DNA of 64,000 nucleotides from the NCBI GenBank assembly GCA_964522375.1, contig CAZFVB010000003.1, positions 14,608-78,607 on the forward strand. The letters are read 5' to 3'. Position 1 is the stretch's first letter. Each line of letters opens with the position of its first letter. Made by a program: the position numbers and the translations under genes. Shown here in pieces: positions 6,389 through 59,494 of this stretch. Below the pieces are notes generated by a model. The model did no database searches, was not told the origin of the DNA, and was given only the letters and a program-made list of their open reading frames with translations. Origin of the DNA: an uncultured Chloroflexota bacterium (GTDB lineage: Bacteria > Chloroflexota > UBA11872).

Positions 6389-6514
6389 TCAGCGATGCTT
6401 GGTTCCTCCAGGCCCACGACATGCGTCGTTGGCACAGAAGCCGAACCTTGGCATCATTCCCCCTAACATCGATCGCGCTGCGATGACGTCATCGCATGGG
6501 ATTCGGACACGCTC

Positions 6515-7508: not shown

Positions 7509-8648
7509 ATGAGCGCTACCCCCGACACCCTGTCCAGCGAATCACCAGCCCCGGGCGGCCTTGACCCCAACGACCGATATTTCATTGCCTCGCAATGGAC
7601 GCTTATGCGGCGAAAGTTCCGGCGTCATAAGTTGGGCGTCATGAGCGTGTGGATCTTGCTGTTTCTGTACTTTATTGCGGCAACCTACGATTTCTGGGTC
7701 CCGTATCTCTCAGTCACGCGTTTCGAAAATGCGTTGGCCGGTCCACCAAGCGCGGTGCACATCGTCGACGATGACGGCCAGCTACGGCGGCCTTTCGTAT
7801 ACGGCCGTTCTGCGGTCCTCAACACCAAGACGTTCACCCGTGACTACACGGAAGACACATCCATGATCTGTGACATCGAGTTCTTCACCCAGGGCCAGGC
7901 CTACAAGATGTGGGGCCTGATCGAGACTGATCGCCATTTCTTCGGGGCCGGCGACTGCAACATCCACCTGTTTGGGACCGACGAATTTGGCCGTGATGTC
8001 TTCACCCGTACATTGGTCGGAGCCAGGATCAGTCTGTCCGTTGGTCTTGTGGGCGTGTTATTTAGCTTCATCCTCGGAACCCTGCTCGGAGGCATCTCAG
8101 GCTTCTTCGGTGGATGGATCGACATGGCGATCCAACGGGTTGTTGAGTTCTTGGTCGCAATTCCGACCACACCATTCTGGCTGGCCCTCAGCGCAACCAT
8201 CCCGGTCACCTGGTCACCCATCCAAACCTATTTTGCAATCACCGTCATTCTGTCCATCGTGGGATGGGCTCCGCTAGCCCGGACGGTTCGCGGCAACGTG
8301 CTCCAGCTACGTGAGCAGGACTATGTCATGGCCGCCAAAACAGCCGGGGCCCGGGACCGTCGGATACTGCTGGACCACCTGCTTCCCGGCTGCATGAGCT
8401 ACCTCATCGTGCACATCACCCTCTCCATCCCCGGCATGATTCTTGCCGAGACCTCGCTGAGCTTCCTCGGCCTCGGAATTCGAGCACCCGCGGTGAGCTG
8501 GGGCAGCCTGCTCCAGAGCGCCCAGAACGTCACAACGATCACCGTCCAACCCTGGCTGATGATTCCAGGCCTCTTTGTCATCGCGACCGTGCTGCTCTTT
8601 AACTTTGCCGGCGATGGGTTGCGTGACGCAGCCGATCCCTACAAGTAG
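7509..8648 (+). CDS. ABC transporter permease (DppC/OppC family)
   Basis: 379 aa starting 2 nt after the previous gene, with the N-terminal extension typical of DppC/OppC and an EAA-like motif (..VMAAKTAGARDRRILLDHLLPG..). Confidence 0.85.
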   Translation: MSATPDTLSSESPAPGGLDPNDRYFIASQWTLMRRKFRRHKLGVMSVWILLFLYFIAATYDFWVPYLSVTRFENALAGPPSAVHIVDDDGQLRRPFVYGRSAVLNTKTFTRDYTEDTSMICDIEFFTQGQAYKMWGLIETDRHFFGAGDCNIHLFGTDEFGRDVFTRTLVGARISLSVGLVGVLFSFILGTLLGGISGFFGGWIDMAIQRVVEFLVAIPTTPFWLALSATIPVTWSPIQTYFAITVILSIVGWAPLARTVRGNVLQLREQDYVMAAKTAGARDRRILLDHLLPGCMSYLIVHITLSIPGMILAETSLSFLGLGIRAPAVSWGSLLQSAQNVTTITVQPWLMIPGLFVIATVLLFNFAGDGLRDAADPYK

Positions 8649-8655
8649 GCCCCCA

Positions 8656-9651
8656 ATGCCAGACGCCGACATCCTCTTAGAAATCAAGAATCTCCGCACC
8701 CATTTCGCGCTCGAAGAAGGCACCCTAAAAGCCGTCGATGGCGTGTCACTTACGATCAGGAAGCACCGCACCCTTGGCATTGTGGGCGAGTCCGGTTGCG
8801 GCAAGAGCGTCACGGCCCAATCCATCCTTCGAATCGTTCCGAAACCAGGAACCGTGGAGGGGGAAATCCTGTTGCACACCAACGAGGACGTCGTTGACCT
8901 CGTGTCACTGAATCCATCAGGACGCTCAATTCGAAACATCAGGGGCCAGGACATCTCCATGATCTTCCAGGAACCAATGACCGCCTTTTCTCCAGTGCAC
9001 ACGATTGGGAACCAAATTATCGAAGCGATCCAGGTCCATGGGGAAGTCGCAGACGACGAGGCACGTCGCCGGGCCGTCTCCCTGCTTGAGCAAGTTGGAA
9101 TTCCAGAACCAGCCTCTCGTATCGACCAATATCCGTACGAGTTCTCCGGGGGCATGCGTCAGCGCGCGATGATCGCCATGGCCCTTGCCCTACAACCACA
9201 ATTGCTGATCGCTGATGAACCCACGACGGCGCTCGACGTCACGGTGCAGGCCCAGATTCTTCGACTCATGCAGCAGCTACAAAACGATCTGGGAATGGCA
9301 ATCATCTTCATCACGCACAATTTGGGCGTCATCGCCAACATGGCAGACGATGTCGCTGTGATGTATCTCGGGAAAGTCGTTGAACTCGGGACCGTCCAAC
9401 AGATTTTCCATGACCCCCAACATCCCTATACCCAGGCCCTACTACAATCGATCCCACAACTCGATCGGAAGCCCGGGGAACGATTGACGGCTATTGATGG
9501 CATCGTGCCAACACCGCTCGACCCGCCGGATGCCTGCGGCTTTGCCGACCGTTGCCCCAAGTTCATCCCGGGCCGCTGTGACACTGCGGTCCCGCCGTTA
9601 CTTACCCTCAGCAGCAACCAGCAGGTGCGCTGCGTGCTGTACGAACAGTAG
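8656..9651 (+). CDS. ABC transporter ATP-binding protein (DppD/OppD-like)
   Basis: Walker A GESGCGKS, signature FSGGMRQR, Walker [13 protein letters not shown], and a C-terminal oligopeptide-ABC Cys-rich tail. The ATG at 8656 follows the permease stop; the ORF-track start at 8575 overlaps the permease and is unlikely. Confidence 0.85.
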
Positions 9652-9728
9652 GCCCTAGATGTGGTTCCGACATCCCTCAGCGATTCGACACCTCGCATCG
9701 AGGCATCACCCCCAAGAGGGCGTCGTCT

Positions 9729-10763
9729 ATGAGTGAACCAAGTCCCGTCACTGACGCAGCTCCCACCCTCCTCGAAGTCCGTGGCCTCAAAAAACACTTC
9801 CCAATCAAGCAGGGGCTTTTTCGAAGAACCATCGGTCACGCGCGGGCTGTAGATGACGTGAATCTCACGGTGCGTGCGGGCACAACCCTTGGGATTGTGG
9901 GGGAATCTGGCTGTGGCAAGACGACGTTAGGCCGATGCATTGTGCGAGCTATTGATCCAACAGCTGGCCAGGTGTCCCTACGCATCAATGGCGAAATGGT
10001 TGAGATCAGCGACCTCTCCGCCGGGCGATTACGCCCCTTAAGAAAACATCTCCAAATGGTGTTTCAGGACCCCTATTCCAGCCTGAATCCCCGCAAAACC
10101 ATCCTGGATATCGTCTCAGAGCCATTACGTATTCACAATGTCGCCAAGGGTGCCGAACTCGAGGACCAAGTCTGCGAACTGCTTAAGGTCGTGGGCCTCG
10201 ACATTCGATATCTAAAGCGTTACCCGCATGCCTTCAGCGGTGGACAACGCCAGCGCATTGGGATTGCCCGAGCGCTCGGGCTAAACCCCGACCTCATTGT
10301 GTGCGATGAACCGGTGTCGGCACTGGATGTCTCAGTTCAAGCTCAAATCATCAACCTCCTCGAAGATCTCCAGCGTGAATTCGGATTAACGTACCTGTTC
10401 ATCGCACATGACCTGAGTGTGGTGAAACATATTTCCGACGAAGTTGCCGTGATGTATGTCGGAAAATTAGTTGAGCAGGCCGAAACCGAGGATTTGTTCA
10501 GGCAACCCAAGCATCCCTACACCGAGGCCTTGCTCTCCGCAGTCCCCCGTCCTAACCCCGATACGAAACTAGACGCCATCACTCTTGAGGGCGAAGTTGC
10601 GAGCCCCTCCAATCCACCATCGGGATGTTATTTCCATCCTCGCTGCCCCTACGCCGAGTCAATATGCGAAACCGAAACACCTCCGTGGACCAACGTCGGC
10701 CACAACAGATATGCCGCCTGTCACTTCGCCAATGACTTAAACCTACGGGGAGTTGACGACTAA
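9729..10763 (+). CDS. ABC transporter ATP-binding protein (DppF/OppF-like)
   Basis: Walker [10 protein letters not shown], signature FSGGQRQR, Walker [13 protein letters not shown], and a C-terminal Cys-containing tail. Confidence 0.85.
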
Positions 10764-10766
10764 ATC

Positions 10767-11195
10767 ATGCTCGTACTCGGGATTGGTATATGGCTCGTAT
10801 TCACAATCCTCATAATCATCCTGATCATTCGGTGGAACGTAGATAAATTTGGATCCCACGTTGAAGCCAACCATCGGGCAGCGGAAGACATTATCAATCA
10901 CGGGTGCGTACCCACCGCCTGGCTCCAGCCATTTCACGACCAACTCACCGAAACATCCCAGCAGGAAACCCCGGAAAACCTTAAGGAATCCGTTGGCCAA
11001 CAAATACTTGATCACTGTGTCGAAAAACTTGACACGTTAATCCGATACTTCGAAAAGAATCGGTTCGCGGCCGACGAGGAGGCCCGCTCAATTCTTCTGG
11101 AATCACTCACCAGCCGTAAGTCGGAATGGATGAATGGGGGTGGCCAGTCAATGCTGGCCCTCGCCGCCAACCAAAAAGGAGCCAGACAGCCATGA
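10767..11195 (+). CDS. Small hypothetical membrane-anchored protein at the end of the transporter operon
   Basis: 142 aa with an N-terminal TM (LVLGIGIWLVFTILIIILII). The start is 4 nt after the ATPase stop, and the stop overlaps the next gene's ATG (ATGA coupling at 11192-11195). Confidence 0.35.
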   Translation: MLVLGIGIWLVFTILIIILIIRWNVDKFGSHVEANHRAAEDIINHGCVPTAWLQPFHDQLTETSQQETPENLKESVGQQILDHCVEKLDTLIRYFEKNRFAADEEARSILLESLTSRKSEWMNGGGQSMLALAANQKGARQP

Positions 11196-12049
11196 AAATT
11201 GCTTATGGAACGTATGCCATGCCAACCGTGGCGTTAGAAGACGCCATCCCGGCCCTCGCGGATATCGGCTACGACGGCGTCGAAATCTGTATCGGGGAAC
11301 GGCATATCGGATCCATGCCAAGCGAATTGACACCGGACCGTCGGACACAGCTCAAGCAACTGTTAACCCAGCACGAGCTGGGAATCCCGGCGTTTTATGT
11401 ATCTGGCGCTCACACTCTCGAACTCGATGATGCGCAACATCAGACCAACCTCGAACACGTCCGTCGTGTCGCCCAACTCGGACACGAACTGGAGGCAGTC
11501 GGAGCCTGGGGGGGGCCGGTCGTAAGTCTTGGAATTGGCGGAAAGTCTGACCAGTGGGAACACATCAAGCACGACATCGTCCGGCGGTTGAACGATTACG
11601 CCGCCATGGCCGTAGAGGAAAATGTCCTGGTCGCGGCAGAAGCTCATTCAGGGGCTGCCGTTGACCGAACGGAACGAGCCTTGTGGGTCATTGAGCAGGT
11701 CGATAGCCCGCTGGTGAAATTGCACTTCGATATTGTGCATACCTTCCTGGCCGGTGAGCGTGTGCAAGATTCGGTACGAGATCTGGTCCCCATAACTGGG
11801 CACACACACATCACAGACGCGCACATCTATCCTGACGGATCTCGAGATCTCCTCCTGCTCGGCCAGGGCCAGCTCGATACCGTCGGGTATCTCAAGGCCA
11901 TGCATAAGGCTGGCTGGACTGACTTCATCACGCTGGAAGTTAGCGGCATGGTCTGGGGCCGAGATGACTACGATCCGATCGCAGCCGCTGTGTTTTCCTA
12001 CCAGACCATCGATCGAGCCTTTGGAGAAGCGGGGGTACCCCGTGAGTAG
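11192..12049 (+). CDS. Sugar phosphate isomerase/epimerase (xylose-isomerase-like TIM barrel)
   Basis: MKIAYGTYAMPTVALEDAIPALADIGYDGVEIC.. is typical AP-endonuclease-2/xylose-isomerase-like TIM barrel. RBS AAAGGAG lies upstream. The ORF-track start at 11126 is upstream and overlapping. Confidence 0.65.
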   Translation: MKIAYGTYAMPTVALEDAIPALADIGYDGVEICIGERHIGSMPSELTPDRRTQLKQLLTQHELGIPAFYVSGAHTLELDDAQHQTNLEHVRRVAQLGHELEAVGAWGGPVVSLGIGGKSDQWEHIKHDIVRRLNDYAAMAVEENVLVAAEAHSGAAVDRTERALWVIEQVDSPLVKLHFDIVHTFLAGERVQDSVRDLVPITGHTHITDAHIYPDGSRDLLLLGQGQLDTVGYLKAMHKAGWTDFITLEVSGMVWGRDDYDPIAAAVFSYQTIDRAFGEAGVPRE

Positions 12050-12135
12050 CTCCGCCTTGCCACGACGCAGGCCACGGGACCTACGAATAGCCGCATTCCG
12101 TTGGAACGGCACCATCACGAAAGACCGAGGTTGGC

Positions 12136-13221
12136 ATGGCGAGTAACCCGGAATTATCGATAGGCATTATTGGCGCGGGAAGCATTGGAACACGACATGT
12201 GTCGAACCTCGAGGTCATGGGTGACGTCACGGTATCCGCCGTATGCGACACCGTTCCCTCACAACTCGAGACGCTCGCAGGCCGGGCCAAGGCTCACGCC
12301 TATACCGACATCGCCGAGATGTTCAAGGGGGAGCCAGACCTTGATGCAGTCGTGATCTGTGTGCCCCCGGTCATCCGCCAACAAATCTTCGAACTTGCCG
12401 CTGCACATGAGGTTGCCGTGTTCTGCGAAAAACCGCCGGCATCAAGCATGGAGGACGCACAGGCGGTGGCCCGGATTGTTCGCGATAGCGGAATGATTTG
12501 CAGTGTCGGGTTCAACTGGCGGTATTCGCCGGCCGTCCAGTACATGCGACGGTTACTGCACGAACAACCCGCCCAACTGGTGCTCAGCACGTTTCTTTCA
12601 GGGGGTGGGTCGGTCGTTGGCCTACGACGAGAGGCCAGTGGCAATTGGTTCTTTAAGAAAGCAATATCCGGTGGGCCGAATCTCGATCAGGCAATCCACG
12701 TTATCGACCAAATGCGCTTTCTCATGGGCGAAATTGTGAAAGTCCAAACGTTTGCCACCAACCTCATTCCCAAATCACAGGACTTTACGGTTGAAGACAC
12801 CACCTCCACGAACCTGCAGTTTGCGAGCGGCGCCACGGGGATGCACGTGCACTCGTGGGGCACACCGCCTCCAGGTGATAACCGCTTCAAACTCATCGGG
12901 CTCGATTATTGGCTCGAACTTAAACCGTATACCCCCGCCCAGGTTCAAGGATCGATGGGGGATACGAGCGACAATTTGGAAGAAATCGACAAAACGTTCG
13001 CCCAGGATTTCACGGATGCACGAAACGAGCGGGTCGTCGAACCACCAGACCCGTGGCACTACGAAGAAATTAAAGTGTTTCTGGACGCCGTCCGAACGCG
13101 CGACACGAGTCGAGTACATAGCAGTTACGACGATGGCATGCGGTCACTAGCCGTGGTTCTGGCCATGAATCGATCCATTGACTCGGGGGAAGCTGAGGCC
13201 ATCGGAGAACTAACACCATGA
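12136..13221 (+). CDS. Gfo/Idh/MocA-family NAD(P)-dependent oxidoreductase
   Basis: N-terminal Rossmann motif IGIIGAGSIGTRH and the EKP motif (FCEKPPA). Confidence 0.75.
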   Translation: MASNPELSIGIIGAGSIGTRHVSNLEVMGDVTVSAVCDTVPSQLETLAGRAKAHAYTDIAEMFKGEPDLDAVVICVPPVIRQQIFELAAAHEVAVFCEKPPASSMEDAQAVARIVRDSGMICSVGFNWRYSPAVQYMRRLLHEQPAQLVLSTFLSGGGSVVGLRREASGNWFFKKAISGGPNLDQAIHVIDQMRFLMGEIVKVQTFATNLIPKSQDFTVEDTTSTNLQFASGATGMHVHSWGTPPPGDNRFKLIGLDYWLELKPYTPAQVQGSMGDTSDNLEEIDKTFAQDFTDARNERVVEPPDPWHYEEIKVFLDAVRTRDTSRVHSSYDDGMRSLAVVLAMNRSIDSGEAEAIGELTP

Positions 13222-13260
13222 CCCCAATCCGTTTCCTCCCATACCCTGCGTCTCTCATCC

Positions 13261-14181
13261 GTGACAAGAGGAGATCTGGCCATGCATCACTCAACTGACC
13301 AGCAGGCCATCCTTACGGCCGACCAAAAACAGTTCTGGCAGGACAATGGCTACCTTCGACTGGAGAAGGTTTTCACTCCCGAACAAGTCCAGGACCAATC
13401 GGATGAACTTGAGCGGATGATGCAGGAATGGGGTGCCATGGGACAGGGATGGCGTGGACCATGGCGCAAAGCGATCATGGAAGCCGATGAAGCCGATCAA
13501 GCCAAGGCCCTGATCCTTGCCGGACTTCAGAACTACTCGGCCACGTATCTGCAAGCCGTCGTCAACCCCACACTGACCGGCGCCGTCAGTACATTGCTCG
13601 GCGATACCGCCGTTGAATTCCACCACTCCGTCCTTCACGCCAAGGCCCCAGGCCTCGGCACCCCCTTCCCCATGCACCAGGACTGGCCCTTCTACCCGCA
13701 CTGGGGTCCAGGATGCGTGGCCGCCATCATGCATATCGATGCAGCAAATGAAGACAACGGATGCCTTTCCTTCCTCCCTGGCAGCCACAAGAATGGCCCG
13801 CTTCAACACGTGCTGCATACCGTCGAGGACTACGGCGAATACGAGCAGCCCTACCTTCCAGTCGAGGAATATCCGCTCGAATCGGCCGTCTTATGCCCGG
13901 CAGATGCTGGCGATGTCGTGTTCTTCAACGTGAACACGGTGCACGGATCGGCGCCAAACCGGACCGACGGATGGCGACGGCTTATTCGGGTCGTGTACCG
14001 GGACCCAGAAAACCCAGCCCTCTTGCCGCAACATACCCACTGGACCGGGCCAACTCACAACCGCAGCAAGTCAAAACCTTCGGAAGACCCACGAGGAATG
14101 ATTGTCCACGGCAAATATCATCGCCCGGAAACAACACCCGAACCGTCCGAACCCACGCTAACCGGACAAGCACCGAATTAA
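13261..14181 (+). CDS. Phytanoyl-CoA dioxygenase (PhyH) family Fe(II)/2-oxoglutarate dioxygenase
   Basis: PhyH-like pattern (..WQDNGYLRLEKVFTPEQV.., HQDWPFYPH, ..NTVHGSAPNRTD..). Start could be ATG 13282. Confidence 0.6.
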   Translation: MTRGDLAMHHSTDQQAILTADQKQFWQDNGYLRLEKVFTPEQVQDQSDELERMMQEWGAMGQGWRGPWRKAIMEADEADQAKALILAGLQNYSATYLQAVVNPTLTGAVSTLLGDTAVEFHHSVLHAKAPGLGTPFPMHQDWPFYPHWGPGCVAAIMHIDAANEDNGCLSFLPGSHKNGPLQHVLHTVEDYGEYEQPYLPVEEYPLESAVLCPADAGDVVFFNVNTVHGSAPNRTDGWRRLIRVVYRDPENPALLPQHTHWTGPTHNRSKSKPSEDPRGMIVHGKYHRPETTPEPSEPTLTGQAPN

Positions 14182-14233
14182 TGAATCCACAACGTCAATG
14201 TGGAGCTAAGTTCACACCTGTCGGAGGACGTCC

Positions 14234-14638
14234 ATGAGCAGCAGTCAAATGACGGAGCGGGACGCAAAAGTCATTTCCAACACTGCGGTCGAACCCGAGC
14301 GCATCGAACTGGAAGGATTTCAACGGACCGTTACTAAGTTGCTCGAAACAACCCGCATGACCGTCCACGTTGCGACCTTTGACCCGCAACAGGCTGGTTC
14401 TCATCATGTCCATCCCAAATCCGAGGAAGTGACGTACATCATCAGTGGGGCAGGTGCCGTTACGGTTGGAACTCGAACCCTCGATCTGTCGGCCGGCGAC
14501 CTGTTCTACGGTCCGCCGAATGTCCCGCACCAATTCCGCAATACCACCAACGAACCGCTTGTCCTATTTTCGATCTATAGCCCACCTGACGAACTCCCGC
14601 TCTACGGAAATCTGCCAACCGCGAACGACGAGGCGTAA
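14234..14638 (+). CDS. Cupin-domain protein
   Basis: 134 aa with cupin motifs (HHVHPKSEEVTYIISGAG.. / ..GDLFYGPPNVPHQFRN). Confidence 0.6.
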   Translation: MSSSQMTERDAKVISNTAVEPERIELEGFQRTVTKLLETTRMTVHVATFDPQQAGSHHVHPKSEEVTYIISGAGAVTVGTRTLDLSAGDLFYGPPNVPHQFRNTTNEPLVLFSIYSPPDELPLYGNLPTANDEA

Positions 14639-14645
14639 TCCCCCG

Positions 14646-16223
14646 TCAACACCCTTCCAGGTGACGAAGTTCCGGCCATATGGACTTCATCGACCATGCC
14701 GACAGCGACTGGAGACGGGCCGGACCTCCACGGGCAAAAAGCGCCACCCCGGCACTATCCTCCCGCGACGGATAGGTGCGAAGGGTTAAGCATTGTTGAT
14801 CACCCACAAATACTTCCACCACGCTTCTATCAACGAATACGCGGAGACGCAACAAGTCGTCCGGGTCCGATGTGAGCGGCCCAATCTCAGGATCTCGTGC
14901 ATACACATCCTCACGTAGTGACGCCTGAGAGATATCGATTTGCAAACGAGGTGTTCCGCCCACTTGGCCGGTCTTGGCCTGAAGTAACGAGATCCGTGTC
15001 TGTTCTACGCCGTCAGGAGATCGAAGCACCGCAATCCCGACCTCACGAGCCTCTCCCGGATCAATCACCGCCTGGATCTCGAGCGCTTTTCCATTCACCG
15101 TGTCGATCGGAATCTCCGTATTCCCAGGAATCTCCATTGAATCGACGACCACCTCATCGCCCCGTAGCGACTCAATCTCCTCGACTGGCGCCATACGAAG
15201 CGACGCGTCCGAATCCAACCAATAGTGACGGGGCAGCGTCATCACATCGGTCCACGCCGTTCCAGCACGACCTTCCTTCACATTAAACACACCGATGTAC
15301 CGACCCTGGTCATCCACCGTCGCGGTTGGCGCGTGCAGGCTACCCGTTGCAAACGCGCCATAGTTCATCCGTCCAAACCGTTCAGGATTCAGACGATGCG
15401 TCTCACGGTCATAGGTTCCGATGTAGTACTGCCCGGCCCGTTTATGACTAAAGAAAAGCATCATGTGGCGACCGTCGCCAATGGGCCAGAAATTCGGCAC
15501 CGCGCCGTCCTCACCGGGTTCCGAGTGAAAACCGCCTTCGATAAGCGTGCCAACATGTTCCCAGGTAGAAAGGTCCGACGATCGAAAGAGGTGGTCTATT
15601 GCGCGGCAATCCGCCCGTAATTCACCATCCTTATAAGTGCCTGAAATGGCGTAGTACCCGTCATCTTCTTTCCAGATGCACGGATCGAACACCCGGTATG
15701 GAGATCCATCCGCATCAATCGGAACCATCGGAATAACCGGGTTATCCGGATGCTTGGCCCAATTCAGCAGCAACGGATCCGTCGCCGTCGCAATACTGTT
15801 ACCGGATTCAGTACCGTGATAAATCGCAATCACTCGATCCGGTTCGACCAGCGTTTGCCCGCTATAACAATGATGCTCGGTTGTCGGATAGAGGGCCGGC
15901 GGAAGATCCGTCCAGCGGACGAGATCATCACTGACCGTGTGCCCCCAATGCACCCGGTTTTCGTTATCAGGTTTCCCCCACTGCGGGCGAAACTGATAGA
16001 ACATGTGAAAACGTCCTTGCCACTGACATAACCCATTGGGGTCATTCATCATTCCCTGCGGTGGCGAAAAATGAAACAGCGGACGATAGGGATCCGTAGC
16101 AAGTGCCTGCCGCGAAGCCAAGAACTCCGCAAGGTCAGGATCTTCGGCTAATGCCGAACGCTGGGCCTCTAATTCATCCGGAAAGATCCGACCATACAGA
16201 GGTGTGTGGGCCATTGCTCTCAA
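14646..16223 (-). CDS. Glycoside hydrolase family 32 (beta-fructofuranosidase / levanase / inulinase-like)
   Basis: GH32 hallmark MMNDPNGL near the N-terminus (..FHFSPPQGMMNDPNGLCQWQGRFHMFYQF..), an RDP-like region and a C-terminal beta-sandwich, 525 aa. Confidence 0.8.
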   Translation of the reverse strand: MRAMAHTPLYGRIFPDELEAQRSALAEDPDLAEFLASRQALATDPYRPLFHFSPPQGMMNDPNGLCQWQGRFHMFYQFRPQWGKPDNENRVHWGHTVSDDLVRWTDLPPALYPTTEHHCYSGQTLVEPDRVIAIYHGTESGNSIATATDPLLLNWAKHPDNPVIPMVPIDADGSPYRVFDPCIWKEDDGYYAISGTYKDGELRADCRAIDHLFRSSDLSTWEHVGTLIEGGFHSEPGEDGAVPNFWPIGDGRHMMLFFSHKRAGQYYIGTYDRETHRLNPERFGRMNYGAFATGSLHAPTATVDDQGRYIGVFNVKEGRAGTAWTDVMTLPRHYWLDSDASLRMAPVEEIESLRGDEVVVDSMEIPGNTEIPIDTVNGKALEIQAVIDPGEAREVGIAVLRSPDGVEQTRISLLQAKTGQVGGTPRLQIDISQASLREDVYARDPEIGPLTSDPDDLLRLRVFVDRSVVEVFVGDQQCLTLRTYPSREDSAGVALFARGGPARLQSLSAWSMKSIWPELRHLEGC

Positions 16224-52462: not shown

Positions 52463-52569
52463 GAAACATTCGGAACGCTGCTATTTAGTCAACCATTAAA
52501 TAGCACCATACGCCTGACAATCAAAGCTTGACTGTTCGCTTCTTGTCTGGCACCGTCGATCTTGTACAG

Positions 52570-52598
52570 ATTGTTATGAGGACTCTCCTCAGAACAAT
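52570..52598. promoter_or_regulatory. Imperfect 13-bp-arm inverted repeat 36-64 nt upstream of lexA; candidate LexA operator (autoregulation) or promoter-overlapping regulatory hairpin
   Basis: ATTGTTATGAGGA-ctc-TCCTCAGAACAAT (one mismatch), followed by RBS GAGGAAG and the GTG start at 52634. A second palindrome, CTATTTA-N9-TAAATAG, lies at 52481-52503. Confidence 0.3.
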
Positions 52599-52633
52599 AC
52601 AGGTGCTCAAACTGGGCTTGAGGAAGTTCGCTA

Positions 52634-53233
52634 GTGACTACCCCGCTGACGCAGCGACAACACCGCGTGTTACAAGCGATTGAGCGATTTATTGAAGACG
52701 AGGGCTACACGCCGAGCGTACGTGAAATCGGCACTGCCATAAATCTAGCGCCGGCCACAGTCCAACAACATATCCAGGCCCTTGAGCGAAAAGGATACCT
52801 CCAACGTTCTGGCCAATCACACGGAATCCAGCTACTTAAGAACGGCCTGTCAACTGGAGTCATAAATATTCCGATCGTGGGGGAAATTGCAGCTGGAAAC
52901 CCAATCGAAGCTTACGAATCAAGGTTCGACACAATCGCAATTCCCAGTGAACTATCGCCGCAATCGACCGCGTATGCGCTTAGGGTTCGAGGCGACAGCA
53001 TGATCGAGGACCACATATGCGACGGCGACATAGTCATCGTTGAGCCAGCAACAACCGTTAATGACGGCGAGATCTCCGTTGCCATGCTGAACGACGACAG
53101 CGTTACGCTAAAGCGAATCTATCGGGAAGGTGACCGGGTTCGGCTTCAACCCGCCAATTCAAAAATGAAGCCTATGTACAGTAGTGATGTTCGTTTACGA
53201 GGCCGGGTCGTTTCGATCATGCGCCAAACCTAA
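52634..53233 (+). CDS. lexA: LexA repressor (SOS regulator, S24 peptidase)
   Basis: N-terminal wHTH (..LTQRQHRVLQAIERFIEDEGYTPSVREIG..), Ala-Gly cleavage region (..IVGEIAAGNPIEA..), and S24 catalytic Ser/Lys (..VRGDSMIEDHI..TLKRIY..). Confidence 0.9.
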   Translation: MTTPLTQRQHRVLQAIERFIEDEGYTPSVREIGTAINLAPATVQQHIQALERKGYLQRSGQSHGIQLLKNGLSTGVINIPIVGEIAAGNPIEAYESRFDTIAIPSELSPQSTAYALRVRGDSMIEDHICDGDIVIVEPATTVNDGEISVAMLNDDSVTLKRIYREGDRVRLQPANSKMKPMYSSDVRLRGRVVSIMRQT

Positions 53234-53248
53234 CTACCACCTGAAAAC

Positions 53249-53962
53249 ATGCCTCAGTTTCAAGACTGCCGAGACGATATTGCAGATCTGCTTACAGCAG
53301 GGCAGATCGACGCAGCTGCCCAGCGAGCCCTCTTAGCGATCGATGCCGAGACCCCAAAGTCCGCCACGATGACTTCCGCGTTTCATTTTGTCGGCCTTGC
53401 AGTTCGCTATGCCACACAAGGTGATAACACAGCCGCTCGGGAAGCCATGGATCATGCTCTGGACATCGCAACTGGCTCCTCAGACCAAGACGATCTAAGG
53501 CCCCAGTTGTATCGTCATGTCGCAGCCTCGCTGGAAGTCGCCGGTCAGCCCGCATCGGCGGCCCGTTGCCTCGAAACCGGCATTGAATATGGCGCAGACG
53601 GTCCGGCTGTATGGCAAGCGTTAGGTCGGGCTCGTCTAAAGTCAGACGACCCATATGGTGCCCTGGAAGCGCTTAGCCATTCCCAACGCCTTAAGCCCTC
53701 GGCCGAAGTGGTCAGCGATCGAATCCTGGCAGAACTAGCGGTAGATCCGTCACCGGGAACCGCACGACAGTCCCTCAGCCGTCTTGAATCCAGCCGTCCT
53801 GAGCAGGTTTCTGTTCGATGGGATTTTGCCTTGGGTCGGGCTCATGAGGTTTCTGGAAACACAGATGCGGCGCGCGCTGCATACCAACGAGTACTCGAGC
53901 ATGTGGATGAAGACCTGGGACCAAAAGAACTAGAACACGCTAAAGGTTTTATATCGACGTAA
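53249..53962 (+). CDS. TPR-like helical repeat protein, hypothetical
   Basis: 237 aa, Ala/Leu-rich, with TPR-like pairs (..AVWQALGRARLKSDDPYGALEALSHSQRLKP..). Starts 16 nt after lexA. Confidence 0.4.
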   Translation: MPQFQDCRDDIADLLTAGQIDAAAQRALLAIDAETPKSATMTSAFHFVGLAVRYATQGDNTAAREAMDHALDIATGSSDQDDLRPQLYRHVAASLEVAGQPASAARCLETGIEYGADGPAVWQALGRARLKSDDPYGALEALSHSQRLKPSAEVVSDRILAELAVDPSPGTARQSLSRLESSRPEQVSVRWDFALGRAHEVSGNTDAARAAYQRVLEHVDEDLGPKELEHAKGFIST

Positions 53963-54053
53963 CGGGCTGTATTCGCATATTCGAAAACTGTCGAGCGAAA
54001 AGACCTTCACGGAACGGGTATTAGCCGTACAGTGCGCTACCATTTCCATTGCT

Positions 54054-55223
54054 ATGCCACGCAGTCTGTGTGGCAGCACCGCGGGAGGCAAGGGTGGTCC
54101 TCTCGTCGTGCCGTTTTACCGGTCGCAACAACTACACACGCGCCTTGCACTAGCGTCTGGGTTACATCTCGGAGCATCACCTACCTCGCTCGCTCCTAGC
54201 CAACGTGATCTGTTCTGTGATCTTTGCCAACAATCTTTAGGCAGTGCGGTTGATCAAGCACTCCGAATGAAGGCCAGTGCATTCATCATGTGCGGCGGCC
54301 TGTTCGCAGACGACAATCCATCCCTCGATCATGTGCGTGGGGCAATGGCTGCACTAGAAAATGCGCGCAGGTCTGACCTTCCCGTGCTAGCAGTCGTCAG
54401 CCGTCGTTCCTTACGAACCGACGGCGTACAGTTTCTCACCGAGCTTGGACTCATTACTCATGTTTTGGACCAAACAAGCCAAGCGGCATCGATCAAGACG
54501 GAAAACGGGCAAAACATCCTCTTTAGAACCGGAAGCTCAGCGAACCGCTTGATCGAACCACCGGAACCGGATGTAAGTGTAGAAATACTTCCGCTAGGAC
54601 TCGATACAACCTCGCCTCTAGATTATGCGGGACAAACTGATCTGATTGTCGATGCGCGATCCTCGGCACCAGACTTTGATCTGGGCACCGCACCTTCGAA
54701 GATAAGGCCAGGGCATGCTGCCCCTTCGCTAAACGTTGGAGCAGTTTCTGGATTTACCGTGGTTGACATCGAAAATCGTCGGATCTCCAATGCAACGTTC
54801 GTTGAGATAGAGGCGGTTCGATCAGTACAAATACAAATCGACTGTAATGCTCCAGGTCAAGAAAACCTTGCAACTCAGATCAATCGTTCGATAGCCCCAA
54901 TGCTCGGAAAAGCCTCCATTCTGAACCTCGAGCTATCCGGATCAGCATCACGCGACAATTGGCATACCGTAAACCCCAGAAAACTTGTAACAGCCGCGGC
55001 AGCGGTAGGCACCCTTATTCGAATGGATCTATCGAAACTTTTGGTAGACCACCCGATCGCAGCCAGAAAAGACCGAAGCTCGTTCCTGGTACATGCACGA
55101 CGAATTGCCGATGCAATGACCTCGTCCACCGAAGATCCTGTTGAACAACACGCGATTTCATCAGCACGAATCCACGTTTCATCAACGGCTAGAGCACATG
55201 ACCCCCTTGAGGCCGCACCATGA
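54054..55223 (+). CDS. SbcD/Mre11-like calcineurin-fold protein with all metal-ligand motifs substituted (predicted catalytically inactive)
   Basis: Motif I: SbcD ..HTSDWHLG.. versus ..LALASGLHLG.. (D to G). Motif II: GDLFD versus GGLFADD. Motif III: GNHD versus VVSRRS, with SbcD-like spacing (~40 and ~30 aa). The start may be GTG ~54106 rather than ATG 54054. Overlaps the next gene by 4 nt. Confidence 0.4.
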   Translation: MPRSLCGSTAGGKGGPLVVPFYRSQQLHTRLALASGLHLGASPTSLAPSQRDLFCDLCQQSLGSAVDQALRMKASAFIMCGGLFADDNPSLDHVRGAMAALENARRSDLPVLAVVSRRSLRTDGVQFLTELGLITHVLDQTSQAASIKTENGQNILFRTGSSANRLIEPPEPDVSVEILPLGLDTTSPLDYAGQTDLIVDARSSAPDFDLGTAPSKIRPGHAAPSLNVGAVSGFTVVDIENRRISNATFVEIEAVRSVQIQIDCNAPGQENLATQINRSIAPMLGKASILNLELSGSASRDNWHTVNPRKLVTAAAAVGTLIRMDLSKLLVDHPIAARKDRSSFLVHARRIADAMTSSTEDPVEQHAISSARIHVSSTARAHDPLEAAP

Positions 55224-58219
55224 TCCTGATTGAACGGCTACTTGTTCACCAGATAGGAGCCATCAAAAACGTCGATCTTCGATTTGCGGCTATGGGAACT
55301 CACATATTGCGTACATCTGTCGAGGAAGCGCTCGGCATTCGAGAAGCTCTTCGTTTCGCTCTTTTCGGAGATTCGGCCATACCATCTGATCGTCGTCCGG
55401 GTGGATACGCTGCCCTTTCAATAGTCGTCGGCGGCATTACCTACATCATCGAGCGACAAATAGGTGACGACCGCATGGTCACAACTAGACTCGGTCGATC
55501 CGGACCTAAAGGACTGGTTCAAATCACAGAGGCCTCTCGAATCGATAGAGAACTCGACAACATCCTAGGCCCCAACATCACCGCGTTCGAAAGCCTGATT
55601 TGGCCCATTGGAAATTTTGATAAAACCGCCAGGCGGTTACCTGATGTTATGCGAGCTTGGCTTGGCACACGCCGCATGCACCTCTTGGATGCACATGTCG
55701 AGATAAGCCCGGACATGAAAGAAACAGAAAAGGCGGCCAAGCTTCACCTCCGACTTGCAGAAATCGCCCAAGACCATAAAGAAACATCTCAGATAGTTAA
55801 GGATTTGGATTTGGCGCTTAAACGCGATCGCGTTTGGCGTGCGATACAGCAGGTCGAAAAAGCTGACCAACTTATAACCTCATCTCGCGAAACCCACACC
55901 GATATGGAGATCCTAGCCAAGAAGTTTTCCCACCTATTGGACGATGCCGCTAGATCGCTCGAGGTCATGCAACTATTCCGACATCGTGATGCAGCAATTT
56001 CCCGCGTAAAGTCGGCCCAGTCACGACAATCGGGTCATGAACGAAAACTATCCGAATTACATAAGCTCAAACTCACTGTATCCGAGCTTGAACGCAAACT
56101 TGACACGCTTGATCGAATTTTGGCGGCTTATACACGATCCGAAAACTCTGCGGCGGCGGCGAAAAAAGCTCGGGAACAAATAGATTCGATTAGCAAGGAA
56201 CTCAACGCCCTGGAATCTACACGAAATGACCTCAGGCTAGAGCGCCGACGTCTTGATCGCCTGTCACTTGATGCCACCCGAGCCCAAACTTTGACCGGAC
56301 GTGCGCATGAAGAAGTACATCAACCGAATGCCACTAGGCTCTGGGATCTGTGGGTCAAATCAACCTCGGAGATAGACGCCCTAAACGCCATCGATGAACA
56401 GGAATTAGCCCACAACCAGGAACTCAACCAAGTAATCGTAAGGATTCGCGATGCCGACCGCAGCAGTCGAAGCAGAGCGCAGCAGCGAGGGCTAGCAACG
56501 GTCGGGACCATCGTGGGAACTGCTATAGCCGGGCTAGGTCTAGGTATCGCAGCTCCCCTTGTTCCAGTCGGATTGCTTGTCGGAATCCTTTCAACGACCA
56601 CTGGGTTGTGGCTGAACATCTCACACGGCTCTCTAAAGACACGCCGAAGCGGGTTGATTGGTCGCCGATCACAACTTCAATATGCGTTACGAAAAATTGA
56701 TCATGGCAAAGCTGCTCGCATTAATGCCCGGCAATCGCAAGGTCAGGCCGTTTCGGCTCTACGAGAGATAGATATGGAAGTACCCTCAAGCATTGAGCGT
56801 GCGATGACACTTCGTGACAGTGCAACCGCCCGTCTTAGAAAATTTTCGCTTGGTGACGAACGTCGCGACGCCGACGAACTCAAAGCCGCCTACTCTTCAG
56901 CCGCTAGCGCGTTAAGCGATGCTCAAAACGAGGTTCTGCGTCTCGAGGCCCGTGAAGAGGCACTAACCGATAGGCAAATTGAATACCAACGAACCGTCAT
57001 CACAGCTGACCTAAAAACTCAACTGGAAAAATCGGCTGAAGCCCAGCACGAAATTGAAAGCCTCGCAGGCAGCTTGTCCCTTAAGAAATCCCGTGAGGTT
57101 GCGCAAGCAGCCCAGATAAAGACCACGCAGAATCTCCACAAGCTCCGAGACACCATTAACACGCAGGCAGAGCTTGAGTTGGACAGGCAAGTCTCAGTTC
57201 GAGATCAAACTCGAGCGACTTCTGAAGTCGTTCGAATAGAAGAGATGATTGGGCCCCGTCATATGCAACTCGAACGCAACATGACCGGTGAAAGCGCCAG
57301 ACGTGACCGAGCCACAATCTTGGCTGAGTTTGTCGCGAGCCTTGGGGAGATTGGCTCGAAAAGGTCACTCGCGACGGCTCACGCAGCTTCCATTCGCGAA
57401 AGATCCGCACGCTCTGCATTTCAACGACACACTACAGACCTAGCGAATTCTTTGCGTTCGCTCGGTGTCGAGACCAGAATGGACCCCACCAGCGCTGAAG
57501 CCCGTGCGGCAGTACCCACACCGACCGATCAGCCTGCGAACTTACAGGACATCCGAACATCGCTTCGACGAGCCAGGGAATCCGCTAAGAAAACTGAAAA
57601 ACAGCTTCAGACACTGGAGTTGCGCACGGGAATCGACAGCTCCGATATAAATAGTCAGGATGCAAAACGTCGCCTCACGGACATCGTTCTTGCCAGACGA
57701 GCGAAAGAAATAGGGCAAGTCCTCACCTCCAAGGCGCTCACAAAAACACTTGCTGGAATCCCAGCCGCAGTTGAGCACACGTATCGAGCGGCGCTACCGC
57801 TAGTAACCAACGGTCACTTTTGGGATGTCCGATTAGACAGCGACTTCGCTGTAGAACTTTGGGACAGCTCAAGAAACATCTGGCTATCACTCGACGAACT
57901 CGACGATGACCAAAAATGTCGAGCGGAATGCACCCTTGCTCTTTCGTTCGCCTCTGCGGCCCCACCATTGGATGCCACCGACCTTCCAGCCTTTCTATGG
58001 CTTGAGCAAAATGAAAGTGATCACGATGGATCTTTAGTTACAGCGTTGGCAAATACCGCCTGCCAAGGAGAAACGGCCCGGAGATATCGGCAACTTATTG
58101 TGGTGCTAAGACCAGATATGACATTGCAGCCACATTTTGAATATGTCTCACAGGTAGCTACCAAGACAAACCGGATTGACCTTCATAATACGATTTCACA
58201 TATGCGGCAGGCAGGCTAG
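55220..58219 (+). CDS. SbcC/Rad50-like coiled-coil SMC-type protein with degenerate ATPase motifs (predicted ATPase-dead)
   Basis: N-terminus MILIERLLVHQIGAIKNVDLRFAAMGTHILRTSVEEALGIREALRFALFG aligns to the SbcC head (MKI..L.L.NF....I.F..GL.LI.GPNGSGKSSI.DAI.FALYG) with the P-loop replaced by RTSVEEAL. ~800 aa of heptad-rich coiled coil follow. In the C-terminal head, LSLDELDDDQK stands in place of LSGGE and ..AFLWLEQNESDHD.. in place of Walker B ..LFLDEGFG.. Confidence 0.55.
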   Translation: MILIERLLVHQIGAIKNVDLRFAAMGTHILRTSVEEALGIREALRFALFGDSAIPSDRRPGGYAALSIVVGGITYIIERQIGDDRMVTTRLGRSGPKGLVQITEASRIDRELDNILGPNITAFESLIWPIGNFDKTARRLPDVMRAWLGTRRMHLLDAHVEISPDMKETEKAAKLHLRLAEIAQDHKETSQIVKDLDLALKRDRVWRAIQQVEKADQLITSSRETHTDMEILAKKFSHLLDDAARSLEVMQLFRHRDAAISRVKSAQSRQSGHERKLSELHKLKLTVSELERKLDTLDRILAAYTRSENSAAAAKKAREQIDSISKELNALESTRNDLRLERRRLDRLSLDATRAQTLTGRAHEEVHQPNATRLWDLWVKSTSEIDALNAIDEQELAHNQELNQVIVRIRDADRSSRSRAQQRGLATVGTIVGTAIAGLGLGIAAPLVPVGLLVGILSTTTGLWLNISHGSLKTRRSGLIGRRSQLQYALRKIDHGKAARINARQSQGQAVSALREIDMEVPSSIERAMTLRDSATARLRKFSLGDERRDADELKAAYSSAASALSDAQNEVLRLEAREEALTDRQIEYQRTVITADLKTQLEKSAEAQHEIESLAGSLSLKKSREVAQAAQIKTTQNLHKLRDTINTQAELELDRQVSVRDQTRATSEVVRIEEMIGPRHMQLERNMTGESARRDRATILAEFVASLGEIGSKRSLATAHAASIRERSARSAFQRHTTDLANSLRSLGVETRMDPTSAEARAAVPTPTDQPANLQDIRTSLRRARESAKKTEKQLQTLELRTGIDSSDINSQDAKRRLTDIVLARRAKEIGQVLTSKALTKTLAGIPAAVEHTYRAALPLVTNGHFWDVRLDSDFAVELWDSSRNIWLSLDELDDDQKCRAECTLALSFASAAPPLDATDLPAFLWLEQNESDHDGSLVTALANTACQGETARRYRQLIVVLRPDMTLQPHFEYVSQVATKTNRIDLHNTISHMRQAG

Positions 58220-58222
58220 GAC

Positions 58223-58714
58223 ATGACCCCAATAGCCACCGAAAAATCTACTGACCGAGAAAACAGCCAGTTGACACTTGACCTTAAAGAGCCCGTAGCA
58301 CAAGCGTATCGGCCCTCAAATCCTCCCCCTAAAGAACATATAAATTTCAGCCTTTTTCTCGCAAGAATATGTGTCTTCGGTGCGCTCGGCTGCGTCGGAT
58401 TACTCGCTTATCTGGTAGTAATTACTAACCCGACCACAAACACCAACGTACTCGCTGTACTTACGACCATATTTTTTGGAGTGTTCTTCTCGTCATGGTC
58501 ATTCGAACACTGGGCTCTTAGCGCCGATGAGAATGCACAAAAACAGCAGCTTTCCACGTGGTCTGTAACCAGGCACGCCTTACTTGTCGCTGTAAGCGTA
58601 TCGACTCTCGCAGGAGCCGCCCTAAATGGCAGCGCAAGTTTCGGCCTCATTGTGTTGCTGATATTCACCGCGGCAATTGGGAACCATGTGCTTCGCCGAG
58701 TGAGGGTCCGATAA
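58223..58714 (+). CDS. Small membrane protein (3 predicted TM), hypothetical
   Basis: 163 aa with a polar N-terminal 45 aa, then hydrophobic segments (..LFLARICVFGALGCVGLLAYLVVI.. etc.). Starts 4 nt after the SbcC-like gene. Confidence 0.4.
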   Translation: MTPIATEKSTDRENSQLTLDLKEPVAQAYRPSNPPPKEHINFSLFLARICVFGALGCVGLLAYLVVITNPTTNTNVLAVLTTIFFGVFFSSWSFEHWALSADENAQKQQLSTWSVTRHALLVAVSVSTLAGAALNGSASFGLIVLLIFTAAIGNHVLRRVRVR

Positions 58715-58720
58715 CAATCG

Positions 58721-59494
58721 ATGGAAGAACCCGTTCATGACCCTTACGCCTCGATAGCAAAACTCTACGAAGCAGAACACCAGCATTGGTTAGAAGATAT
58801 AGAAATGTATCGTGCTCTCTCGGCTCGAGCGGGAAGTCCGGTACTAGAACTTGGATGCGGATCAGGTCGAGTAATACTTCCCTTAGCTGAAGATGCTTAC
58901 GAAGCGCACGGTATCGACATATGCGAGCCGCTCCTGAGAATTGCCGCTGAAAAAGCTAAGCGCAAAGGAATCCCTGTCCTCCTCACCCAAAAAGACATGC
59001 GGGCCTTCTCTAGCCCCTCCAAATTTCGTCTAGTGTTCTGTGCCCTAGACTCCCTGCTTCATCTGCCTCAATACGAAGATCTCTTGTCGATGCTTACCTC
59101 AGCCTTTAACGCACTTGTTCCAGGTGGGTTTTTCGCTCTCGATGTCGTGAATCCGACCCCCGACTTACTTGCCCAAGGAGACGGACTCGTTCGAAGACAA
59201 TCCTCATTCATTGGACCATCAGGAACCAACGTTACTCACTTTGTCGCATGGGACATAGATCCAAACATCCAAACAATTAAGAGTCATCACTTTTATGATT
59301 GGATAAGCAGTAATGATCAGATGAATCGGCGTACAGCTTCAATATGCCTGCGATATTGGACTAAAGATCAGATTAAAGAAGCCCTCAATGCCACGGGGTT
59401 CACATCACCTGAACTATACGGATCTGTACAACTAGATACGTTTGAGCTGGACAGTGAACGGATGATTTTCGTCACCACCCGTCCTACTGCCTAA
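58721..59494 (+). CDS. Class I SAM-dependent methyltransferase
   Basis: Motif I ..VLELGCGSGRV.. and post-I acidic residue (..AHGIDICE..). 257 aa, 7 nt after the membrane gene. Confidence 0.75.
   Translation: MEEPVHDPYASIAKLYEAEHQHWLEDIEMYRALSARAGSPVLELGCGSGRVILPLAEDAYEAHGIDICEPLLRIAAEKAKRKGIPVLLTQKDMRAFSSPSKFRLVFCALDSLLHLPQYEDLLSMLTSAFNALVPGGFFALDVVNPTPDLLAQGDGLVRRQSSFIGPSGTNVTHFVAWDIDPNIQTIKSHHFYDWISSNDQMNRRTASICLRYWTKDQIKEALNATGFTSPELYGSVQLDTFELDSERMIFVTTRPTA

Follow-up and report, generated by a model that had tools for sequence, protein, structure and literature searches.

A 64,000-nt stretch of DNA from an uncultured Chloroflexota bacterium (here called the window, whose numbering is used throughout) carries, downstream of the SOS repressor gene lexA, two overlapping genes on the + strand that encode a Mre11/SbcD-like protein of 389 residues (54054–55223, as the longest open reading frame) and a Rad50/SbcC-like protein of 999 residues (55220–58219). 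Profile comparisons identify the two proteins as true homologues of Mre11/SbcD and Rad50/SbcC, a relationship that is visible only with profiles and intermediate sequences, and motif alignments indicate that the pair is catalytically dead across its whole family. By descent, as read from these comparisons, the pair belongs to the Rad50/Mre11 superfamily, but it lacks the catalytic and zinc-hook features that define SbcCD. We propose, with moderate confidence, that the two proteins form an SOS-linked, membrane-anchored and catalysis-free Mre11-Rad50-like complex, which would have evolved from active phosphoesterase and ABC ATPase ancestors. The first reading of this DNA, referred to below as the initial annotation, had held the pair not to be a described system, and a limited literature search agreed with it, returning no report of a dead Mre11-Rad50-like pair of this kind.

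Single-sequence searches are nearly blind to this homology. The 389-residue protein gave only sub-threshold Mre11 matches (NCBIfam Mre11_Halo, 2.8e-7; PDB, 0.26), and the 999-residue protein had no match in Pfam, NCBIfam or PDB. No Pfam or NCBIfam model passed its threshold on either protein, and a Pfam scan of 20 family members gave neither an ATPase nor a Metallophos match. A 20-sequence profile of the 389-residue family retrieved P. furiosus Mre11 from PDB (E = 4e-4), with motifs II–III covered by the match; in this alignment GGLF falls on GDLF, and GNHD faces a non-conserved stretch. A profile of residues 1–170 of the 999-residue family had just two PDB matches, both to T. maritima Rad50 (E = 0.013), which are colinear over residues 5–136 and place the P-loop opposite "aspee-a". 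The corresponding profile of the C-terminal head gave no meaningful PDB match.

The comparison was extended with hhalign, using reference alignments built from seven annotated SbcC/SbcD pairs and, as controls, cross pairs, reversed templates and 40 column shuffles each. The N-terminal heads scored 28.7 against each other and the C-terminal heads 26.7, with head controls at or below 21.5, and the SbcD-like family scored 31.1 against SbcD, with all controls at or below 23. An exhaustive hidden Markov model search of 1.84 billion representative proteins returned about 45 matches from outside the family to the C-terminal head (query residues ~820–965), with E values from 1e-9 to 1e-3. The ten that were scanned are Rad50-like ATPases, eight of them 856–1216 residues long; Pfam assigned AAA_23, SbcC_Walker_B, SMC_N and AAA_27 to them, and the four of them that were also compared with NCBIfam matched its archaeal Rad50 models at 1e-20 to 1e-30, below the cut-off. 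Taken together, the three cognate hhalign scores of 27–31 against controls of at most 23, the Mre11 match in PDB and the matches of the C-terminal head that reach 1e-9 bear out the SbcD/SbcC homology claimed in the initial annotation.

The closest detectable active relatives are the Rad50-like ATPases P0033, P0037, P0040 and P0046, of about 1000 residues. They resemble the dead family in length, in the N-terminus MI(K/R/L)..., in the position of a central hydrophobic hairpin and in the C-terminal layout YxDaxlxxDyxIxVWDexxxxW..., and they differ from it in lying in varied contexts that contain no lexA, small membrane protein or methyltransferase gene. One of them, P0037, is preceded by an overlapping Metallophos gene for a protein of 395 residues with all Mre11 motifs intact. 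In BLASTP this partner matched both real SbcD (6.7e-10) and the dead family (1.3e-6 for the L033 member and 1.6e-4 for the window protein).

Structure prediction added little. AlphaFold2 models made from shallow alignments were poor, with predicted local distance difference test (pLDDT) values of 53.6 for the 389-residue protein and 44.3 for the 999-residue protein. When the low-confidence model of the former was submitted to Foldseek, the top 26 matches were all Mre11, at TM-scores of 0.24–0.30, which we use as supporting evidence only; the poor model of the latter gave no significant match and was disregarded. The AlphaFold2 model of the 999-residue protein has near-continuous helices over residues ~165–860, at a pLDDT of 44, and the protein consists of split head halves with about 650 mostly helical residues between them. 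In the 389-residue protein (pLDDT 53.6), two C-terminal helices were modelled at residues 344–358 and 362–386, after an invariant SFLV..RR.

Loss of the catalytic motifs was evaluated by alignment and by regular-expression scans of 28 Rad50-like and 23 Mre11-like family members. At Walker A, where active relatives have GxNEAGKS and SbcC has GPTGAGKT, the window protein reads RTSVEEA-L (residues 31–38, 55310–55333), with a one-residue deletion and no lysine, and the P-loop pattern [AG]x4GK[ST] is absent anywhere in the 28 Rad50-like members. The Q-loop glutamine is replaced by I, P or D and the H-loop histidine by R, G or A. The signature, FSGGT or LSGGE in active proteins, has become LDDDQ (residues 894–898 in the window protein) or unrelated residues; Walker B, FIFLDE or LFLDE in active proteins, has become FLWLEQ (residues 925–930), and in distant members its last two residues are D-H, D-A, Q-V, E-V or E-A. 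These two degenerate motifs span 57899–58009. None of the 28 members has SGG at the signature position or hhhhDE at the head position in the regular-expression scans. PPLDATDLPAFLWLEQ is near-invariant within the Rad50-like family. The active Rad50-like relatives keep GxNEAGKS, FSGG, FIFLDE and the H-loop histidine ((I/T)SH/TTH).

The Mre11-like protein has lost its metal ligands in the same manner. The window protein carries SGLH for (S/A)DxH, GGLF for GDLF and SRRS for GNHD. Across the family DxH is replaced by GxH, GxR or GxL, and GD by GG, GP or GA, while GNHD, the histidine of motif IV and GHxH are gone in 23 of 23 members. Some members hold only three to five histidines in total, and H304 alone is nearly invariant. 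Motifs I–V of Mre11 (DxH, GD, GNHD, H and GHxH) are all kept by the active relative, as they are by four SbcD sequences. The substituted motifs reported in the initial annotation thus lie at the right alignment positions, both against the active relatives and against genuine SbcC and SbcD. A mis-threaded alignment was considered and rejected, as a search across the family found no intact motif elsewhere in any member.

Activity of the pair by way of non-canonical residues, or membership in an unrecognised anti-phage defence system with a Rad50-like sensor, as in Lamassu and Gabija, is in our view very improbable. Rad50/SMC-like sensors are common in defence systems. An illustration of such a sensor is found in PMC12663957. 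The active relative P0037 matches the Lamassu LmuB model of PADLOC at 8.5e-23, which speaks for a defence role, but the window proteins have no significant PADLOC match, and a known defence system was rejected on the same result. PADLOC returned for the module proteins only a generic methyltransferase-domain match (mad2, 1e-15) and marginal matches at E ≥ 0.002, and no effector domain was found. The locus is also chromosomal, syntenic and of ordinary base composition, and is not a variable island. As for an enzymatic activity, the P-loop lysine and the Walker B glutamate are both gone, and the conserved histidines are too few for a dimetal site.

The genes of the dead pair are under purifying selection, which is more relaxed than that on their neighbours. 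The length of the 999-residue family is constant (994–1005 residues), and that of the 389-residue family is about 365–392 residues; the 4-nt overlap of the pair is universal, and the ORFs are free of stops and frameshifts in more than 25 genomes, with sequences down to ~25–40% identity. The ratio of nonsynonymous to synonymous substitution rates (dN/dS) in the three more diverged pairs of loci (dS 0.19–0.55) was 0.22–0.29 for the Mre11-like gene and 0.22–0.31 for the Rad50-like gene, compared with 0.05–0.09 for lexA and 0.08–0.15 for the TPR gene; in two near-identical pairs it reached 0.38 for the dead-pair genes. Many non-catalytic positions are invariant, e.g., LRxALFGD, IWP, WLGxRRM and PPLDATDLPAFxW. 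Because of the intact ORFs, the constant length, the 4-nt overlap and the dN/dS values, the genes are considered still functional. The same data bear on the possibility that an SbcCD-like operon, once active, is now decaying and that its relic genes have no present function. The loss of all catalytic motifs and the faster evolution of the pair compared with its neighbours would suit such relics, but constant-length ORFs kept intact and overlapping in so many genomes, the dN/dS of 0.22–0.31 and the many invariant non-catalytic positions largely refute it, and we rate it the least probable of the explanations weighed here.

The family appeared in Chloroflexota genomes only. A word-indexed homologue search found three close relatives, and its repetition from an alignment added none. 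One genome per GTDB species was scanned with a pattern; the 22 loci recovered all come from metagenome-assembled genomes labelled Chloroflexota or Chloroflexi, many of them marine or from sponges.

In the middle of its predicted coiled coil, at the position of the zinc hook, the 999-residue protein has a hydrophobic and glycine-rich segment of about 40 residues (residues 424–465, GLATVGTIVGTAIAGLGLGIAAPLVPVGLLVGILSTTTGLWL; 56489–56614), which by its length could form a two-helix membrane hairpin. The turn P-L-x-P is conserved, with P446, L447, P449 and G451 invariant. The maximum of Kyte-Doolittle hydropathy over 19 residues is 2.27 in the window hairpin, whereas it stays below 1.55 in genuine SbcC, and every degenerate member, like the active Rad50-like relatives, has a hydrophobic segment here. 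The CxxC motif is found in 0 of 28 family members, whereas the SbcC proteins of E. coli, Listeria and Salinibacter all carry CPxC. Seven of 20 family members match Pfam C19orf12; the location of this match on the hairpin is assumed, as the match coordinates were not seen. The initial annotation had described a catalytically dead SbcD/SbcC-like pair that retains its scaffold. This description holds, but the pair is not a canonical SbcCD, since the hook is missing and its place is taken by the hydrophobic hairpin, which the annotation had not mentioned.

Compared with Mre11-Rad50 and SbcCD, the pair shares the neighbouring, overlapping genes, of which the Mre11-like one comes first, the Mre11-type fold signal, the Rad50-type split head and the colinearity of every motif position. 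It differs in that all ATPase motifs and phosphoesterase metal ligands are substituted, in the hairpin that stands in place of the CxxC hook and in its restriction to one Chloroflexota lineage. The closest described architecture is that of SbcE/SbcF (YhaN/YhaO). B. subtilis SbcE is an SbcC-like protein without CxxC, whose partner is the SbcD-like YhaO/SbcF; its central domain is unique, with a conserved proline and a first half that is hydrophobic and insoluble, its Walker motifs are recognisable though diverged, and it has a role in double-strand-break repair and competence (Krishnamurthy et al., PMC2811018). The dead pair is likewise hookless, with a proline-bearing hydrophobic centre and an SbcD-like partner, a likeness that was matched to the written description and not to the sequences. 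Unlike SbcE, the dead family has no ATPase motifs, and no Pfam AAA_27 match was obtained for the window proteins or the 20 members; the active relatives match AAA_27 only near its 22-bit cut-off. A Bacillaceae match considered as a source of YhaN/YhaO proved to be a NurA-HerA-Mre11-Rad50 cluster.

The active relatives P0033, P0037, P0040 and P0046 (loci L031 and L037–L040) represent a widespread and apparently uncharacterised hairpin-bearing clade, and one of them has an intact Mre11-like gene next to it. We know of no characterisation of this Rad50-like clade. The apex hairpin draws attention to it as a broader group, with active members and probably SbcE, that is apparently anchored in the membrane and not linked through zinc hooks.

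The pair lies in a run of six co-directional ORFs on the + strand (52634–59494), which had been recognised in the initial annotation and were all confirmed: lexA, a TPR gene, the two genes of the pair, a gene for a 163-residue membrane protein and a gene for a SAM-dependent methyltransferase. The gaps between the six genes are, in order, 15, 91, −4, 3 and 6 nt, and no terminator-like site on the + strand was detected in the intergenic gaps of the window. Two ATGA-type overlaps had been described; there is only one, at 55220–55223 between the genes of the pair, and the junctions of the membrane-protein and methyltransferase genes are short gaps.

The same neighbourhood was recovered from related genomes. 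By tblastn, the whole region is syntenic in the lineage, including the housekeeping flanks (aminotransferase, thymidylate kinase and 2-hydroxyacid dehydrogenase genes). In more distant loci, identity to the window is ~75% for the aminotransferase, ~72% for LexA, ~60% for the TPR protein, ~54% for the methyltransferase, ~42% for the membrane protein, ~39% for the 999-residue protein and ~35% for the 389-residue protein. The TPR gene follows lexA by 14–20 nt in nearly all related loci, with 60–92% identity across loci, and no TPR gene was called in L035. Most relatives carry two extra genes between the TPR gene and the Mre11-like gene (L001, 8069–9943; L033, 6775–8749; L035, 6932–8882): one for a DinB-like Y-family polymerase with intact DMDAFY and SLDE motifs, and one for a protein of 185–201 residues with a weak DUF4130 match. 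The window, L002 and L003 lack both genes between the TPR gene and the pair, and no copy of either was found within the 64-kb window. The GH15 and acetyltransferase genes, which lie on either side of the cluster in relatives, were also not found in the window.

A reduced form of the locus occurs in L018 (OY282448.1, high GC), where the Mre11-like, Rad50-like, membrane-protein and methyltransferase genes stand together at 8826–15598. No lexA or TPR match was found in the ~23 kb of this locus that were analysed. Because L018 keeps just these four genes, they are regarded as the core module. In L018 the homology to the membrane protein covers the C-terminal end of a longer ORF (13001–14683, 560 residues). 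The lexA-headed arrangement of the initial annotation looks derived in this lineage, as most relatives have the polymerase gene and the 185–201-residue gene in between, behind candidate LexA boxes of their own.

For the regulation of the module, we looked for the LexA operator. A box of the GAAC-N4-GTTC type has been reported for Firmicutes, Actinobacteria and Chloroflexi (PMC4951493). This box was rejected: with 31 matches, where 28.7 would be expected, it shows no enrichment, and lexA has none upstream. Alignment of the sequences upstream of lexA across loci revealed the invariant block TTGACC-GTTCGTTTATTGTCCGG-TA, and the same motif occurs upstream of the polymerase gene of the relatives, once or twice in tandem. 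In the related loci of ~20 kb, exact matches to GTWCG-N4-TTGTMC are confined to two places, ahead of lexA and ahead of the polymerase gene (in L001 at 6492–6506, 8025–8039 and 8040–8054); L033 and L035, which are more distant, carry a slightly relaxed form at both. The window has one exact match in 64 kb, GTTCGCTTCTTGTCT at 52534–52548 on the + strand, directly after a TTGACT −35-like hexamer (52528–52533). On the basis of this phylogenetic footprinting, GTWCG-N4-TTGTMC is a candidate LexA operator of this Chloroflexota lineage. It has the direct-repeat-like form GTTC-N7-GTCC, nearer to the alphaproteobacterial direct repeat GTTC-N7-GTTC than to the reported Chloroflexi GAAC-N4-GTTC, and so departs from what has been reported for the phylum. 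The initial annotation had proposed 52560–52610 and 53963–54110 for tests of LexA binding; the sole candidate box of the window lies outside both. One-mismatch copies of the motif at 14129–14178 are inside an ORF and were treated as chance occurrences.

Two further features of these spacers were seen by eye. Between the candidate operator and the start of lexA, an inverted repeat with 13-nt arms (ATTGTTATGAGGA/TCCTCAGAACAAT) and a 3-nt loop lies at 52570–52598; it is partly conserved in L002 and absent from more distant loci. The spacer between the TPR and Mre11-like genes holds GGAACGGGTATTAGCCGTAC within 54008–54029, which shares 11 of 19 positions with the first polymerase box of the relatives (GTTCGTAATTTGTCCGTAC, L001 8025–8043). 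This may be the remnant of a LexA box that decayed when the polymerase and 185-residue genes were deleted in this lineage, or a chance resemblance.

The Mre11-like gene of the window is preceded by a leader of its own (54033–54107, + strand), which is conserved at the nucleotide level across clades. It consists of GTGCgcTACCAT, a clade-variable hairpin (54055–54075) and an invariant GGGAGGCAAGG (54083–54093), and the conservation extends to L033, in which it does not share the frame of the main ORF, and to L022, in which it has an in-frame TGA. Because of this conservation, the Mre11-like gene probably starts at GTG 54108 (371 residues) and not at ATG 54054; GTG 54108 lines up with the M-R-x at which the proteins of distant relatives begin, and the gene calls of P0005 and P0006 agree with it. 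The leader had no Rfam match and a weak RNAalifold consensus (−6.15 kcal/mol), and may be a promoter or 5' untranslated region of the module.

From its position and from the related loci, we infer that the module of this genome is under SOS control. The strongest case for membership in an SOS transcription unit is made by L035, where all genes from the polymerase through the methyltransferase overlap or have 6 nt between them and follow immediately upon tandem boxes. A parallel in logic, and not in homology, is the ImuA-ImuB-DnaE2 SOS cassette, which is linked to LexA and in which inactive homologues of DNA enzymes serve as adaptors beside an active polymerase. The cassette is mentioned in PMC4951493. 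Similarly, in most relatives the dead pair comes after a gene for an intact DinB-like polymerase, which has candidate LexA boxes in front. The protein families are unrelated, however, and the window itself has no polymerase gene.

In the arrangement that we propose, a dimer of the Mre11-like protein would still bind the base of the Rad50-like coiled coil to give an M2R2-like assembly. The apex hairpin would insert in the cytoplasmic membrane and replace hook-mediated dimerisation, and the heads would hang into the cytoplasm on coiled-coil arms of ~250–350 residues each. The module would be expressed within the LexA-controlled damage response, in the window by read-through from the lexA promoter, from its own leader, or both. 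Because neither ATP binding nor DNA cutting would be possible, the complex would act by binding alone, most likely as a membrane-attached tether or platform for damaged ends, for stalled-replication structures, or for repair or translesion factors, by analogy with ImuA/ImuB, which serve the SOS mutasome as inactive scaffolds. The initial annotation had floated a DNA-end sensor or tether, an SOS division brake or a regulator of the real SbcCD. More tentatively, and with less confidence than in the complex itself, a Mre11-Rad50-type machine may have been turned into a nucleotide-independent, membrane-anchored structural device, induced by damage, that keeps either DNA that is broken or stalled or the machinery of translesion synthesis and repair at the membrane, or that couples damage to division or segregation via the membrane partner. 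In this full form the idea is a doubtful one, and it would describe, if true, the first SMC/Rad50-family complex that works wholly without ATP.

Several observations weigh against an SOS-linked complex of this kind. The pair evolves much faster than its neighbours (35–39% against 54–75% identity), and the synteny of the entire region means that adjacency to lexA may reflect shared ancestry and not shared function. The L018 core occurs without a nearby lexA and without a box (no candidate was found within 800 nt upstream of the core). In the window no box lies before the pair, and the separate conserved leader could be an independent promoter. The active relatives are unlinked to lexA, and most are without an adjacent Mre11-like gene. 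Finally, complex formation, membrane insertion and DNA binding are all deduced from sequence, and the AlphaFold2 models are poor.

Some of these points are shared by the main rival explanation, a membrane coiled-coil or cytoskeletal system of Rad50-like ancestry, which would serve envelope organisation or membrane remodelling, be unrelated to DNA damage and owe its position at lexA to inherited synteny. The syntenic housekeeping flanks, the core without lexA in L018 and the pair's own conserved leader, with no LexA box in front, are all compatible with it. So are the partners, a membrane protein and an amine-type methyltransferase and not DNA enzymes, and a match of the active relative P0033 to arcadin-4, a Rad50-like cytoskeletal protein, at 3.6e-10, below the cut-off. 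Against such a system, in most relatives the pair lies downstream of a DinB-like polymerase gene, which itself stands behind a tandem repeat of the motif found upstream of lexA, the genes of L035 are tightly packed from the polymerase to the methyltransferase, and the Mre11-like partner has been kept. To our knowledge, Mre11-like partners occur in DNA-end complexes only. We regard a membrane or cytoskeletal role of this kind as unlikely.

A different role for the dead pair would be that of a decoy or regulator of genuine Mre11-Rad50/SbcCD or of a related nuclease with genes at another place in the genome, forming mixed, inactive or redirected complexes in the SOS response. Pseudoenzymes often regulate active paralogues, and the conservation of the scaffold and of the presumed interaction surfaces with loss of the chemistry, together with the conserved C-terminal helices of the Mre11-like protein and its invariant SFLV..RR, would fit such a role. 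However, the pair has identity to real SbcC and SbcD at the profile level only, so mixed complexes seem unlikely, and the predicted membrane anchoring points to a separate location. This role is improbable in our estimate, and the membrane-anchored, catalysis-free complex remains the explanation that we prefer.

Rad50, SbcC and SMC proteins are understood as ATP-driven machines, in which ATP-dependent engagement of the heads is central to DNA recognition and to the licensing of Mre11. A pair in which both partners have lost all catalytic residues, and which selection has yet maintained across a bacterial lineage, raises the question of how much the Mre11-Rad50 architecture can achieve through shape and binding only, and it would constitute a natural separation-of-function version of the Mre11-Rad50 complex.

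The identity of the first gene (52634–53233, + strand) as lexA was confirmed by NCBIfam TIGR00498 (198.8 bits against a cut-off of 110.95) and by the Pfam matches LexA_DNA_bind and Peptidase_S24; the Ala-Gly cleavage site (IAAGNP), the serine of GDSM and the lysine of TLKR are all readable in its translation. The second gene (53249–53962, + strand) encodes the TPR-repeat protein of 237 residues (Pfam TPR_2, 3e-12, and TPR_14).

The small membrane protein (58223–58714, + strand) has 3–4 transmembrane segments predicted from hydropathy (49–67, 76–94 and 119–152) and no significant match in Pfam, NCBIfam or PADLOC; relatives of it were detected within the family only. It shows no detectable similarity to the known SOS division inhibitors of the SulA, YneA and SidA/DidA types, which form a very diverse group. 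Its gene follows the Rad50-like gene in all related loci, including L018, L033, L035 and L036, and the methyltransferase gene likewise always accompanies the pair.

The last gene (58721–59494, + strand) encodes a class I SAM-dependent methyltransferase of 257 residues (Pfam Methyltransf_25, 1.3e-16), with a match to NCBIfam daptide_MTase at 69 bits, below the cut-off of 175. Its PDB matches are 9sot (3e-19), CcbJ (3e-15), YunM, CypM and sugar N,N-dimethyltransferases, and its nearest solved relatives are amine N-methyltransferases, including the cypemycin N-terminal enzyme (CypM) and daptide-type enzymes. A protein or peptide amine within the module is a possible substrate, and the methyltransferase stays with the module in L018.

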